Below, piece after piece: positions 4,090 to 55,253 of a stretch of DNA of 64,000 nucleotides (positions are counted from its first letter, which is position 1; each line of letters opens with the position of its first letter). The translations under genes were made by a program, and so were the position numbers. The notes below the pieces were generated by a model that was given only the letters and a program-made list of their open reading frames with translations, had not been told where the DNA came from and did not search any database. The stretch is from a virus (Duplodnaviria > Caudoviricetes). The stretch is taken from positions 10,408 through 74,407 of IMG/VR virus record IMGVR_UViG_3300013936_000002; one strand, given 5' to 3'.

Positions 4090-4114
4090 AAAGAGGTTCA
4101 TAAGAGCCTCTTTT
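4089..4114. terminator. Bidirectional intrinsic terminator after terL
   Basis: aaaagaggttc-ataa-gagcctctttt hairpin with A/T tails on both sides. Confidence 0.8.
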
Positions 4115-4120
4115 AATTAA

Positions 4121-4256
4121 TAAAAAAAGATATCGTTTGCAACCGATATCTTCTCCGTAGCTACTATAAGTTCGAAATTCCATAAGTCTTTTTTAGAATA
4201 TTGAACTTGCGATTACAACATTCATTTTAAAGCATACTACTTTTTCAAACTTACTA
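4121..4256 (-). ncRNA. Candidate ~135-nt small RNA
   Basis: Bounded by a consensus promoter (4262-4295) and a terminator (4122-4152). Only a 10-codon ORF without clear RBS. The 5' segment taagtttgaa can pair with ttcgaactta. Confidence 0.5.
4122..4152 (-). terminator. Intrinsic terminator
   Basis: Minus strand aagatatcg-gttgcaaa-cgatatctt followed by a T run. Confidence 0.75.
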
Positions 4257-4261
4257 TATAA

Positions 4262-4295
4262 ATTATACTATATTTTTTTTGAATTGTAAATAGTT
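4262..4295 (-). promoter_or_regulatory. Conserved phage promoter (AACTA-TTTACA-17-TATAAT)
   Basis: Minus strand aactatttaca attcaaaaaaaatatag tataat; same motif as the right-arm promoters. Confidence 0.75.
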
Positions 4296-4296
4296 A

Positions 4297-4758
4297 TTAT
4301 TCACTTTGATAACTTTTATAAAAATCATCAAAAGACCATCTTGTTATTAAACCAGTATTATCTATTGTAATAAAAATTGGAGAATATTTTAATCTATTAA
4401 CATCAAATGTTGTTATACCCGGAAAAAAAGCCTTTAAATTCATAAAGCTTCCACCTGATAAAACTAATGAAATAATATCTTTTAAATTGGAAGACCACAT
4501 AGGAAAATTTACAAAATAATTTTCATTAAATATTTTTATAATTACAATATCTGTGGAGTTTAAGCCAAAAGTACATGTGTTTATAAAGGATCTTAAATTA
4601 TTTAAATCTTCTTCTTTTAATTGATATGTATTTTTAGTATCATCAAAAAATACACTGTTTAAACCATTATATATTTTAATATTAGCACATTCTTTTGCTT
4701 TTAAATTTTTATATGGTTGATATCTACCATTTCTTACATAATAATTTTTTAATTTCAT
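4297..4758 (-). CDS. Hypothetical protein, last gene of the structural arm
   Basis: AAGGAG RBS, contiguous with upstream gene. Confidence 0.6.
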   Translation of the reverse strand: MKLKNYYVRNGRYQPYKNLKAKECANIKIYNGLNSVFFDDTKNTYQLKEEDLNNLRSFINTCTFGLNSTDIVIIKIFNENYFVNFPMWSSNLKDIISLVLSGGSFMNLKAFFPGITTFDVNRLKYSPIFITIDNTGLITRWSFDDFYKSYQSE

Positions 4759-43569: not shown

Positions 43570-43880
43570 CAAACCCATGTAAATATAAAAATATACCCTC
43601 CCCCCAAAATCCAAAAATAAAATATATTATATATATAATATATTTTACCTTTTTTTATTTTTCCTTATATATATTTTTTAAAAAATATCTAATAGAAGAT
43701 ATTTTATATTTATTTATTTATATAAATAAATATATAAATTATTAGGTCATATAAAATGGGGTTAAAAAATCACTAAAAATAAAAATAATTTTTTTTACTC
43801 ATTTTAAACCAAAAAATTAAAAATTAAGTTAACCCCCCCAATTTTTGAAGATTTTTTAATCCCATTTGATAAGGGTTAAT
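43570..43880. other. AT-rich palindrome-rich non-coding region, candidate origin or packaging/terminus site
   Basis: 30-bp and 22-bp perfect AT palindromes, three GGGTTAA motifs, C tracts. Confidence 0.4.
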
Positions 43881-48009: not shown

Positions 48010-48258
48010 ATGAAACAATCAATTAAATTGAAAAATATGGTAGAAGAACAATGGGAGCATTTTAAAATGAATGAATGTTATAATGAGATTATAGAATGTG
48101 AAAATTGTCCATTTAAGTATATTGATTGTAATGAATTTGAACTTGAAGATGCATGGGTTAACCATAAAGATTTATTTAGTGATAAATTTTTAGATCAAGA
48201 AGTTGAAATAGAAGATGAAGAGCTATTATCTGAAGAAGATAAAGAAAAGGAAATAAAA
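48010..48258 (+). CDS. Cys-rich A-domain ORF running in frame into the MTase
   Basis: Paralog of the 47563 N-terminus; no stop before the internal ATG at 48259. Confidence 0.5.
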
Positions 48259-48994
48259 ATGGAATTAAACAAAATATATTTAGGAGATGCTTACGAATTA
48301 ATCAAACAAATTCCTGATAAAAGTATTGACTTAATTGTTACTGATCCACCTTATGAAATAAATAGTTTAACAGGTGGTGGTATGTTAAAAGAAAAAAGAA
48401 TAGAAAATTTAATGGACAGTTTAGAAAATGAGAATCTACATATAGGAATTAAAGAAGATATTCTAAACGAATTTATAAGAGTTTGCAAAAAAATAAATGT
48501 TTATATATGGTGCAATAAAACCTTGATTCCTAAGCTATTAGATTTTTTTGTTATCAAGCATAAATGTACATTTGATATAATCACTTGGCACAAAACAAAT
48601 GCAATGCCTTTATGTGGTGGGAAATATTTAACCGATACAGAATATTGCTTATATTTCAAAGATGGAGTAAAACTTAATACAACTTATGATACAGCTAAAA
48701 CTCATTATGAACTACCTATTAATATTCAAGATAAAGCACTTTATTCTCATCCTACTATTAAGCCAATACAAATTATTAAGAACTTAATAACTAACTCAAG
48801 CCTTGAGGGGGGGGGTAGTGCTAGACCCATTTATAGGTTCAGGAACAACAGCTGTTGCATGTAAAGAATTAAATAGACAATTCATAGGTTTTGAATTAAA
48901 TCCAAAGTTTTATGAAATTGCAAACGATAGATTAAATGATGTAACTCAAGTTGATAAAAAGAAAGAAGAACAAGGCTATATGAAATTGTTTTAG
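48259..48994 (+). pseudogene. N4/N6 DNA methyltransferase (beta order), frameshifted at a G9 tract (putative phase-variable OFF state)
   Basis: DLIVTDPPY and HPTIKP in one frame, VLDPFIGSGTT in the +1 frame; junction at G9 48807-48815; G8 joins them. Confidence 0.85.
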
Positions 48995-49006: not shown

Positions 49007-50537
49007 ATGAAAAAAGTTGATGAAGAACAAATATCTTTATTTAGTATGATATATGATGAATTTAAGATTACAAAACCAATTAGATTAATTGAATTATTTG
49101 CAGGCTATGGAAGTCAATCATTAGCATTAAAATATTTAAATGTTAATTTTGAACATTGGAAAATTGCAGAATGGGCAGTAAAATCAATCATTGCTTATAA
49201 AGATTTACATTTTAGTGAAAATAATCAAGATTATTCCAAAAATTTAAGTTTTGAAGAAATAATTAATTATTTAAACGATTTAGGAATATCAATGGATTAT
49301 AATGAACCTATGAATTTAAAACAAATAAAATCTATGGGTGAAAATAAATGTCGTATGGTATTTAATGATATAAAAGCAAGTAATAATCTTGTTAATATAT
49401 CAAAAGTGAAGGGGGGGGGATTTAAACATTGTTGATAGTGATAAGTTTCAATATATAATGACTTATTCCTATCCATGTTGAAAATGACAAGATTTATCAT
49501 TAGCTGGAAAGCAATTAGGAATGACTAAAGGTAGTGGAACAAGAAGCGGTTTATTATGGGAAGTAGAAAGAATTTTAGATGAATTAAAACAAGATAATAT
49601 TCAAGAAATGCCGATACTCTTAATGGAAAATGTTCCAGAAGTTCATTCTAAAAATAATATTAAAGATTTTAGATTATGGATTCAAAAATTAGAATCCTTA
49701 GGTTATACAAATTTTTGTGAAGATTTAAATGCCAAAAATTATGGAATACCTCAAAATAGAGTTAGAACATTTATGATTTCTATTCCAAAAGAATGTATAT
49801 ATTATTTTCCAAAAAAGAAAAAATTAGATATTTTATTAAAAGATTTATACATTAAAAATGTAGATGAAAAATATTTTTTAAAAAACAAACAAATAAATGA
49901 TATTATCCATTGGAAAGCACAACAAGATCCAATCGAAACAATGGATAAAGTAAATAAAACAGGTATTATACCTATTATAACTACAAGAAGTGGAGACTAT
50001 ACAGCTGGTATGATATTAATACCTATTAAAAATAATACTTCTCAAGGATATGAAATGGCAACATTTGGTGATGGTATTAATATTAGTGGTAGAATGAAAT
50101 ATCAAAGAGGTAATGTGCAGCATGGATTATCTCAAACTTTAACTACTAAAAGTAATGTAGGTATTATTAATGAGTTACAATTACTTGGAAATGCAACAAA
50201 TAAAACATTTAACAATGGAAAAGATATTCATCAACAAGATAGATGTTATAATGATAATTTATTGACAACTATTAATACTCATGTATTTCCATATCATTTA
50301 GATAATTTAAGATTTAGAAGATTGATACCTAAAGAACATTTTAGGTTAATGGGAGTTAAAGATAAAGATTTTGAAAAAATTAAATTAAACCAATCTGACC
50401 AATCATTATATCATTTAGCTGGGGATAGCATTGTTGCAACTTGTTTAATGGGTTTATTTGGACAATTATTAGGAATTAATTGGCAAGATAAATTTAATAT
50501 AAAAGAATGGTTTGATTATTTACCTAAAAAAATTTAA
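49007..50537 (+). pseudogene. C5 cytosine DNA methyltransferase interrupted by a G9 frameshift and a 9-nt stop-containing insert
   Basis: Motif I ELFAGYG, IV TYSYPC/QDLS, VI LLMENV, VIII PQNRVR, IX RRLIPKE.FRLMG, X LAGDSIV; G9 at 49411-49419; TGAAAATGA at 49479-49487. Confidence 0.88.
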
Positions 50538-53954: not shown

Positions 53955-54144
53955 AGGTAGAAGTTATGCAAAATGTGAAAATTGTGGATTAGTAAAAGAA
54001 GATGGGAATGTTATATTATTATTTAATGAAACCAATTATCATTGCAGAAAAACAAATCATATTGTTAAAAGATTATATGCTAATGAAAATAGCTTATGGC
54101 TTTGTAAAGATTGTTTAAATGAGCTAAGAAAGGCAATAAAATGA
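53908..54144 (+). CDS. Zinc-ribbon-like small protein
   Basis: CENCG and LCKDC pairs. Confidence 0.55.
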   Translation: MERIYQKKPRKIQMIKGRSYAKCENCGLVKEDGNVILLFNETNYHCRKTNHIVKRLYANENSLWLCKDCLNELRKAIK

Positions 54145-55253
54145 TATATGGTTATGCAAGAGTTTCAACTAAAGAACAAAATTTAGATAGACAACTTGAA
54201 GAATTTAAAAACTATAATATTGATAAAATCTATTGTGAAAAGAAATCAGGAAAGAATTTTAAAGATAGAGATGAATATCAAAAATTATTAAAAAAACTAA
54301 AGAAAGGTGATTTGTTAATTATCATGTCTATTGATAGATTAGGTAGAAATTATGAGGAAATTTTAAATCAATGGAGAATAATTGTTGAAGATAAAAAATG
54401 TGATATTCAAGTTTTAGACTTTCCAATGTTAAATACTAGAAATGGTGGTTATGGACTTGAAGGTAAATTCTTATCAAATATCATACTTCAAGTGTTAGCT
54501 TATGTCGCCGAAAAGGAAAGGCAAAAAATAAAAGAAAGACAAGCTCAAGGAATAGCTATTGCTAAAGCAAAAGGTATTCATATGGGTAGACCTAATTTGG
54601 TGTTTCCACCTAATGCTGATGAAGTGCTTAATAAATATGTTAATAATGAAATATCTAAAGAAGAAGCTATGACATTGTTAAAATGTGCTAATTCAACATT
54701 TTATAAAATGTTACAAATAAAATCATTAAAGAGAAAAAAGATATTAAAGAAAAAATTAAAAAAATATAAACATCCGAAAATTATAATTAAAAAATATAAA
54801 CATTCTAAAATTATAATTAAAAAATATAAGTATCCTAAAACTATAAAAAAAAGATATAAAAAACCTCGTATCGGAATACAAGCTAAAAAATACAAACATC
54901 CTAAAATTAAAGTTATAGCAAAAAAATATAGAAAACCTAAAATTAAAGTTGTAATTAAGAAAAATAAAAAACCTAAAATTATAAGAAAAAAATATAGAAA
55001 ACCTAAAATTAAATTTGAACCAATAATTGTTGTGAATCAAGTGGTTTATTTAAAATCTAAATCAGATTATAAAATAGTAGCTTATAAAAAGAATGGTGAA
55101 AAAGTTGAAGCAAAAACCTTTTTATTATTAAGTAAAAAATTATACACAAATACATCAACTATAAAAAATTATATGAAAGGTAAAAACACTTATTTAAATG
55201 ATGATATAGAAAAAATAGAAAAAGTTTATTATGAAAAGGAGACAAAGAAATGA
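54141..55253 (+). CDS. Small serine recombinase (resolvase/invertase) with Lys-rich repeat extension
   Basis: YGYARVST.EQ, GDLLII.SIDRLGR, ER..I.ERQ..GIA.AK..G...GRP. Confidence 0.9.
   Translation: MIYGYARVSTKEQNLDRQLEEFKNYNIDKIYCEKKSGKNFKDRDEYQKLLKKLKKGDLLIIMSIDRLGRNYEEILNQWRIIVEDKKCDIQVLDFPMLNTRNGGYGLEGKFLSNIILQVLAYVAEKERQKIKERQAQGIAIAKAKGIHMGRPNLVFPPNADEVLNKYVNNEISKEEAMTLLKCANSTFYKMLQIKSLKRKKILKKKLKKYKHPKIIIKKYKHSKIIIKKYKYPKTIKKRYKKPRIGIQAKKYKHPKIKVIAKKYRKPKIKVVIKKNKKPKIIRKKYRKPKIKFEPIIVVNQVVYLKSKSDYKIVAYKKNGEKVEAKTFLLLSKKLYTNTSTIKNYMKGKNTYLNDDIEKIEKVYYEKETKK
54759..55010 (+). repeat. Eight degenerate coding tandem repeats (KKY[KR]xPKI)
   Basis: 30-36-nt units such as aaaaaatataaacatccgaaaattataatt. 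Confidence 0.85.

Follow-up and report, generated by a model that had tools for sequence, protein, structure and literature searches.

Stop-led inserts at the catalytic cysteine of gut-phage C5 methylase genes: candidate sites of short translational hops

Introduction

Why would a phage keep a gene whose reading frame carries two stop codons directly after the codon for its catalytic residue? The question is raised by a C5 cytosine DNA methyltransferase gene in a 64-kb window (the whole stretch of DNA analyzed here) of a phage genome from IMG/VR, which is 74.4 kb long and has direct terminal repeats. Here, the codon for the catalytic Cys is followed by the nine bases TGAAAATGA, read in frame as TGA AAA TGA, and only then by the codon for the Gln of PCQDLS. 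The answer offered is a tentative one. As far as the sequences go, the ribosome may make a short hop over the insert, restoring PCQDLS at low efficiency, with the hop layered on a G8/G9 switch that is OFF in the window copy. This reading comes near to being probable without quite reaching it.

The two triplets would, of course, be no stops at all under an alternative code in which TGA means Trp or Gly. This was considered and rejected. The phage genome (25.9% G+C) shows dense coding under the standard code (table 11), TGA terminates 12 of its 83 open reading frames (ORFs) of at least 100 amino acids, and 218 in-frame Trp codons are TGG, as is the codon of every Trp residue in the methylase gene. 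Reading TGA as sense gives mainly spurious antisense frames. Nor does ARAGORN find any tRNA gene in the window or in the 74.4-kb genome, and so there is no suppressor tRNA. Because the standard code is used and no tRNA gene is present, TGA is a true stop in this phage.

The gene and its insert

A first-pass annotation, made from the letters alone, had placed the insert exactly after the catalytic Cys codon and had described the downstream motifs as intact and in frame. Both statements hold. Positions 49473-49496 read CCA TGT TGA AAA TGA CAA GAT TTA TCA, to the base, and PF00145 matches the C-terminal part of the gene with 107 bits (cut-off 22; E 1.6e-30), covering positions 72-318 of the 324 in the profile, with ENV, QNRVR, motif IX and AGDS in frame. 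The match starts at profile position 72, which is the residue right after the catalytic Cys. The N-terminal part alone has no Pfam match; its first 130 residues or so are near-identical to those of the intact homologue P0002, which carries PF00145. Motifs I, VI, VIII, IX and X read ELFAGYGSQ, LMENVPEV, PQNRVRTF, RRLIPKEHFRLMG and AGDSIV, respectively.

One tblastn segment spans residues 135-513 of P0002, and its sole stops are the two TGAs of the insert. Aligned with full-length homologues, the gene has three extra codons that exactly separate the C from the Q, both invariant, of YS[FY]PC-QDLSLAG. Inspection of this site among homologues, which the annotation had proposed, shows how unusual they are: in each of the 151 homologues whose motif IV is uninterrupted (75 virus or assembly loci and 76 bacterial-genome loci), PCQ is read with no gap. 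A contiguous P-C-Q in one ORF is absent in the window copy; it needs the nine bases skipped and, in addition, a G8 tract upstream.

An insert shared by six genomes

The annotation had offered three explanations: the scar of a lost intron, intein or homing element, a recent inactivating insertion, and a translational bypass. The second, in the form of a lesion private to this sequence, is disfavored by the company that the insert keeps and by selection on both sides of it. Six phage genomes, drawn from no fewer than four assemblies, carry the insert: the window, L002 and L003 (both from IMG metagenome 3300045988), L007 and L008 (two ENA assemblies), and L284 (a 72.8-kb metagenome contig). The five relatives carry TGACAATGA, one change from the window form, so that both TGAs are kept and the middle triplet is AAA or CAA. 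When metagenomes were scanned by pattern for variant forms of the 9-nt insert, one further genome came up, the rest being chance matches; no close relative was found among GenBank phages.

Both halves of the gene are under purifying selection in the insert-bearing copies. Beyond the insert and the G8/G9 tract, the six copies contain no stop or frameshift in 1.3-1.5 kb. Among five aligned copies, the ratio of nonsynonymous to synonymous rates (omega) on the two sides of the insert, a comparison that the annotation had also proposed, is 0.03-0.24 for the 157 codons before it and the 140 codons after it, with dS up to 0.31. Whole-gene pN/pS between pairs of copies is 0.09-0.16 (binomial p 1e-9 to 1e-19 versus neutrality); this covered five of the six, while L284 was read and not scored. 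In the pairs L007-L008 and L002-L007, a 148-nt block around tract and insert has diverged like its flanks (0.034 and 0.020 versus 0.028). The insert is therefore older than these two splits.

Selection on both halves also fits a gene with two products: a 157-amino-acid N fragment ending in PC and a C fragment begun at the ATG at 49521, both made and both selected, acting as a non-covalent split enzyme or having other tasks (S-adenosylmethionine binding, DNA binding). Both fragments are indeed called as genes in many assemblies (P0122, a cluster of 37 members, P0003, P0013), and fragments of a C5 methylase are reported to complement each other (PMC3404938). Two products are nevertheless quite improbable. 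The C fragment would be made without QDLSLAGKQLG, a part of the catalytic loop, yet the codons from the insert to the next Met (QDLS.AG) are conserved in all interrupted genes, where they show synonymous changes. That Met (M172) is just as invariant in intact homologues, and no start codon stands at the point where reading would resume. The natural split C5 methylases known to us are divided within the variable region rather than at the catalytic Cys. Reinitiation at the AUG within AAAAUGA was considered as well and rejected; it is out of frame and opens 14 codons only.

Inserts at the same motif in related genes

The window insert has counterparts. The family set examined consists of 80 IMG/VR relatives, further assemblies and pattern scans, and it holds inserts of 5-9 nt, often with lengths that are no multiple of three. 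At the Pro-Cys junction these are TAACTT, TAACTA, TAGTCA, TAAACA, TAGACTT, TAAGGCG, TAAATTCA and TAAACGCCT; at the Cys-Gln junction, TGAATAGT; at the Gln-Asp junction, TGACAA and TGACAT; and at the Leu-Ala junction of QDLSL-AG, CGGTCTA, CCGCACTA and CGGTA. In a scan that did not require a stop, all of those at the Pro-Cys, Cys-Gln and Gln-Asp junctions open with a stop codon. Those at Leu-Ala open with CGG or CCG, codons used 0.1 and 0.5 times per 1000 in the window phage. The IMG/VR pattern scans for TGA directly after the Cys or the Gln codon returned nearly nothing except chance matches.

Several of these inserts are 7 or 8 nt long, yet both flanking frames stay open over 280-460 codons. 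Read-through is therefore excluded as a general answer. For the window itself, double read-through would mean that both UGAs are misread (as Trp or Cys) to give very small amounts of PC-x-K-x-QDLS. Of the stops, UGA is the leakiest, and a 9-nt insert is in frame. Set against this are the standard code with no suppressor tRNA, the three extra residues that would lie inside the invariant PCQ catalytic loop, and the 7- and 8-nt inserts of relatives at the same junctions, where no read-through can restore the frame. Double read-through is thus hardly credible here.

The ends of the inserts are not random either. The last triplet of an insert resembles the codon that precedes the insert: 27 of 48 bases match, against 11.2 under a composition null or 14.6 with permuted partners (P<1e-5), and with similar inserts collapsed 22 bases match against 11.2 expected (P=2e-5). 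The pairs of preceding codon and last triplet include CAA/CAA, CCT/CCT, CTC/CTA (twice), TGT/TGA, TGT/AGT, CAA/CAT and CCG/GCG. Matches are exact in L104 and L181, Leu codons are synonymous in L294 and L295, and the UGA of the window shares two of three bases with UGU. The preceding Pro codon is CCG in 7 of 8 genes with a Pro-Cys insert, against 26 of the 151 intact genes. Taken from these sequences, the layout shown family-wide would be that of a slow A-site codon, a short gap, and a landing triplet that looks like the take-off codon.

At the level of proteins, such breaks are common; short N-terminal fragments on record number 821. Among the best 120 short homologues of the N part, about 18 clusters end at ...YSFP, 3 at ...FPC, 11 at ...FPCQ, about 18 just past QDLSL and about 21 before motif VIII.

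Some lesions in the family are of other kinds. Plain nonsense substitutions are found in L154 (626-631, where TAA replaces CAA at the PCQ Gln) and in L028 (a stop in motif X, at about 4099), and thus ordinary dead copies also exist. Motif I is interrupted between its Ala and Gly (F-A and G-Y-G) by 4 nt in L039 (2578-2581) and by 8 nt in L004 (1058-1065), with the rest of each gene open. These two were not accepted as members of the gap family; neither opens with a stop or shows a triplet that matches, and both may be plain lesions. A quasi-palindromic origin of the inserts was also tried, TGACA being the reverse complement of TGTCA. It could explain those at Cys-Gln and Gln-Asp, not those at Pro-Cys and Leu-Ala, and was rejected.

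A proposed hop at the catalytic codon

How might such a gene be read? In copies with G8, the ribosome would decode to ...YSYPC. The peptidyl-tRNA-Cys would then rest on UGU with a stop UGA in the A site (in the window, UGA does stand directly after UGU), where termination would be slow. The tRNA-Cys would unpair, the mRNA would slip by 9 nt, and the tRNA would pair again with the second UGA, in which the U and the G match. Decoding would restart at CAA, and a small share of passes would yield the enzyme with its canonical PCQDLS, with YSYPCQDLSLAGK as the peptide across the junction. A single 9-nt hop from UGU to the second UGA, with CAA next, would fit both forms of the insert. The form TGACAATGA would also allow two hops, from UGU to UGA (+3) and then from CAA to CAA (+6), to the same product. 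The nine bases would then form a short gap, left untranslated, inside the coding sequence of a C5 methyltransferase gene that works under a tight throttle.

The three explanations of the annotation can now be compared. The hop is the best supported of them, on comparative evidence: six genomes share the insert, both halves are selected, relatives have gaps led by a stop, and the end triplets are alike. What it lacks is a convincing hairpin. A wider proposal can be entertained, with somewhat more doubt than the hop itself. This is that the catalytic Pro-Cys-Gln and neighboring codons of gut-phage C5 methylases bear a natural family of hop sites of 5-9 nt, of which the window, where UGU would take off over UGA-NAA onto a near-cognate UGA, may be one, and that hop and poly-G switch together give two-layer control of a costly or risky enzyme.

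Weighing the hop against a null allele

A number of observations weigh against a hop. The annotation had seen no stimulatory hairpin, and folding agrees: no significant structure is found at the window insert (z-score -1.36 for 47 nt and -1.83 for 101 nt) or in the form of the five relatives (z -0.37). No Shine-Dalgarno-like element is seen at the window insert. The landing triplet of the window is merely near-cognate (UGA for tRNA-Cys), the gap holds two stops, and the copy is also frame-shifted by G9. Most of the Pro-Cys cases share just one base with their take-off codon, CCG. The look-alike triplets at the ends of the inserts could, moreover, be a target-site duplication left by an insertion event.

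The history of the inserts adds to these doubts. The 150 nt around the insert have about one-third of the diversity of the flanks, and could be a recently spread patch. The genes are mosaic, with differences between copies that are mildly clustered, so the signal of selection could be partly imported by recombination from intact alleles. On a quick maximum-likelihood gene tree, the Pro-Cys inserts are scattered (7 changes for 8 rows), with close intact sisters; given such scatter in mosaic genes, inserts must often have been gained and lost. None of 80 copies in bacterial genome assemblies from gut Bacillota carries such an insert.

Many of these observations are at home under another explanation, that of a null allele. 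Here, the insert kills the methylase. It would survive because, in some hosts, the gene can be spared or does harm (for example, where restriction is methylation-dependent), or because the insert shields the site from a homing nuclease that competing phages carry, with gene conversion spreading it; the flanking triplets would be the remains of a target-site duplication. The two in-frame stops, the second break at G9, the low diversity near the insert, the scatter among intact sisters and the absence from bacterial genomes all fit. So does the close intact allele L009 (P0002), which has neither poly-G nor insert. Its flanks are about 95% identical to those of the insert-bearing genes, and it differs from the window mainly in a block of about 130 nt (49405-49535), covering the poly-G position and the insert, which is far more diverged than the flanks. 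The block looks like a converted patch.

A null allele is unlikely all the same, for it leaves much unexplained. It does not account for whole-gene pN/pS values as low as those found, which include pairs whose insert block is as old as the flanks, for six copies of 1.3-1.5 kb with no further stop or frameshift, or for the retention of a G8/G9 tract in so AT-rich a genome. A random scar does not predict a stop at the start of the gap together with a matching triplet at its end.

The same allele L009 bears on yet another explanation, that the nine bases are removed before translation, being missing from some members of the DNA population, through reversible insertion and loss, or cut from the mRNA. 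Close alleles free of the insert exist, of which L009 is one, and the short repeats that flank some inserts (CAA TGA CAA in L104, TGACAA twice in L002) could support slippage. L009, however, differs in the whole block, which is no clean excision, and all six assembled genomes have the insert. We know of no mechanism in bacteria that excises RNA segments of 5-9 nt. Removal is thus very unlikely.

Homing nucleases enter the argument on more than one side. The 74.4-kb genome has no match to PF01844, PF13392 or PF01541 (HNH, HNH_3, GIY-YIG), and HNH-like ORFs are not enriched beside genes with inserts (3 of 18 by a local profile, or 4 of 18 with the HNH inside L055, versus 16 of 92 overall). These results count against a hop and against a null allele. 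No large insertion was found at the Pro-Cys-Gln-Asp junctions among 171 loci. The first explanation of the annotation, the scar of a homing element, survives as a possible origin of the insert; what speaks against it is that no relative has a larger element at the site and that the genome lacks such nucleases.

HNH_3 genes do stand next to or within certain related genes (L107, L055 and the type of L109, with an HNH ORF before motif VIII), which speaks for a null allele. In L109 (4220-5181, cluster P0239), the one example of the break before motif VIII that was read as DNA, an HNH_3 gene insertion of about 1 kb splits the family gene just before motif VIII (QNRxR); about 20 further clusters, ending in ...DLNGAL, probably share it. 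This insertion could be an intron or a free-standing homing element. In L055 (IMGVR_UViG_3300026549_000164), HNH domains lie inside the methylase gene (4100-4700), apparently in frame with a 3' part of 510 codons, and this gene also has a gap, CAA-TGACAT-GAC.

Poly-G tracts in two adjacent methylase genes

The window copy has a second break, a G9 tract that displaces the start frame; the length that keeps the frame is G8. The tract lies 57 nt upstream of the insert region, and its length is G9 in the window and L007 and G8 in L002, L003, L008 and L284; the intact allele L009 has AAAGGAAAAGAC at the site, with no G tract. This is the pattern of a homopolymer contingency locus, with length polymorphism among close relatives and one length, G8, that joins the frames. 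The tract is held at 8-9 G in spite of a genome G+C of 25.9%. It is proposed, from this comparison, to be a heritable ON/OFF switch that is OFF (G9) in the window copy.

The adjacent N4/N6 methyltransferase gene has a G9 tract of its own, about 600 nt away (Table 1). Relatives have G7 or G8 at this first tract and G8 or G9 at the second, in the C5 gene. Because tract lengths differ among relatives, both genes look phase-variable.

Phase-variable methyltransferase genes with homopolymer tracts are known as the phasevarions of Haemophilus, Neisseria and Helicobacter. The window resembles these in having G8/G9-type length polymorphism in a methylase frame, with one length in frame. It differs from them in that the tract is in a phage, that two neighboring methylase genes have one, and that it occurs together with a gap containing stops.

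Some further tracts were noted. L152 has a G9 tract (690-700) in its adjacent N4/N6 methylase and an 8-nt Cys-Gln gap in its C5 methylase, a pairing as in the window. Frame-breaking G8 tracts lie inside the target-recognition region of related methylases in L104 (4598-4605) and in L033 (near ...TKGGGE). Besides the two G9 tracts, the sole G or C homopolymer of at least 7 in the window is a C7 run at 43833-43839.

As to the neighborhood, the ORFs that flank the methylase gene have no informative Pfam or PHROG match. A serine recombinase gene (Resolvase N-terminal domain, E 2e-28) lies at 54141-55253, about 3.6 kb downstream of the methylase genes.

Table 1. Parts of the C5 methylase gene and the tract in its neighbor, in window coordinates.
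Feature	Position	Strand	Basis
G9 tract in the adjacent N4/N6 methyltransferase gene (48010-48994), out of frame here	48807..48815	+	
C5 cytosine DNA methyltransferase gene	49007-50537	+	PF00145 and motifs
5' part: start codon, motif I (ELFAGYGSQ), ATG frame	49007..49410	+	ORF 49007-49435; near-identical to N-terminus of intact homologue P0002
G9 homopolymer, phase-variable tract	49411..49419	+	lengths compared among relatives
Stretch DLNIVDSDKFQYIMTYSYPC in the downstream frame, ending at the catalytic Pro-Cys	49420..49478	+	translation, alignment
TGT, catalytic Cys codon, proposed take-off codon	49476..49478	+	sequence, homologue alignment
Nine-base insert TGA AAA TGA, proposed untranslated gap	49479..49487	+	sequence, homologue alignment
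Second TGA, proposed near-cognate landing triplet for peptidyl-tRNA-Cys	49485..49487	+	inference; 2 of 3 bases match UGU; kept in 6 of 6 genomes
3' part from the Gln codon: QDLS, motifs VI, VIII, target-recognition region, IX, X, stop	49488..50537	+	PF00145
First in-frame ATG past the insert, gene-caller start of a 338-amino-acid fragment	49521..49523	+	ORF list, alignment

Relation to known bypass systems

The signals that favor bypassing include a stop or "hungry" codon after the take-off codon, codons that match at take-off and landing, and the latitude of pairing in the P site (PMC5009743; bioRxiv 10.1101/2022.08.31.505936). Mismatches are tolerated when the tRNA pairs again in the P site (bioRxiv 10.1101/2022.08.31.505936). 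By analogy, four features would together make the bypass signature known from gene 60 of phage T4, its homologues and synthetic stop-hops: a slowly decoded codon in the A site, a gap that is short but of no fixed length, a landing triplet resembling the take-off codon, and open frames under selection on both sides.

The closest natural comparison is with T4 gene 60 and its cassette for the homing endonuclease MobA (Huang 1988; Bonocora 2011; Manning and Atkins, bioRxiv 10.1101/2022.08.31.505936). Shared with the window are a stop after the take-off codon, a gap at invariant residues of a phage enzyme, and a landing triplet like the take-off codon; relatives of gene 60, like those of the window gene, also have gaps that shift the frame. 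The differences are many. The window gap is 9 nt, not 50, and neither a stem-loop for take-off nor a Shine-Dalgarno element nor a signal in the nascent peptide was identified for it. Its landing triplet is near-cognate only, its genome has no linked nuclease, and the gene and the host group are others (the phages being gut Bacillota phages). The gene 60 cassette is reported to have a scattered and apparently young distribution, with some phages keeping the gap after loss of the nuclease (bioRxiv 10.1101/2022.08.31.505936). The inserts described here, scattered and apparently young as well, follow the same pattern.

Synthetic stop-hops in Escherichia coli offer the closest layout (Weiss et al. 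1987, via PMC5009743). As far as the review describes them, L104 (CAA UGA CAA) has exactly their arrangement. L104 is also the one member of the family with a clean hairpin at the take-off codon, a perfect one of 6 bp, and its UGU CAA UGA CAA GAC would thus make a textbook stop-hop layout. The constructs in that description were, of course, made in the laboratory, and the window form departs from them with its two stops and imperfect match. A 2016 review by Atkins and colleagues knew of no natural in-frame stop-hop (PMC5009743).

Two further systems are comparable. A phage-gene case of 2013 (cited in PMC5009743 and PMC10732093) likewise has a short gap that opens with a slow-to-decode codon; there, the codon is a rare UUA sense codon, the gene is a different one, and that case is also unproven. 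The byp elements of the mitochondrion of Magnusiomyces capitatus (Lang et al. 2014, via PMC5009743) are likewise many short inserts corrected in translation, with take-off and landing often matched at two of three bases. As described in that review, they differ from the inserts here in being 27-55 nt long, G+C-rich, and located in a mitochondrion with relaxed decoding.

Significance

Natural translational bypassing is known from very few cases. The present candidate contributes a gap right at the catalytic Cys of a C5 enzyme, a table of gaps across the family together with a statistical test of likeness between take-off and landing triplets, and the pairing of a gap with a poly-G switch. If the gaps are not hopped, there is still a site-specific, recurrent breaking of methylase genes at their catalytic codons, and this needs an explanation of its own.

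If they are hopped, short hops would be a recurrent mode of phage gene expression. Across metagenomes, gene callers would then be cutting functional methylase genes into two "fragments", which affects dozens of protein clusters in the present set. Further, phage methylation, which decides escape from host restriction, would gain a translational throttle on top of phase variation.

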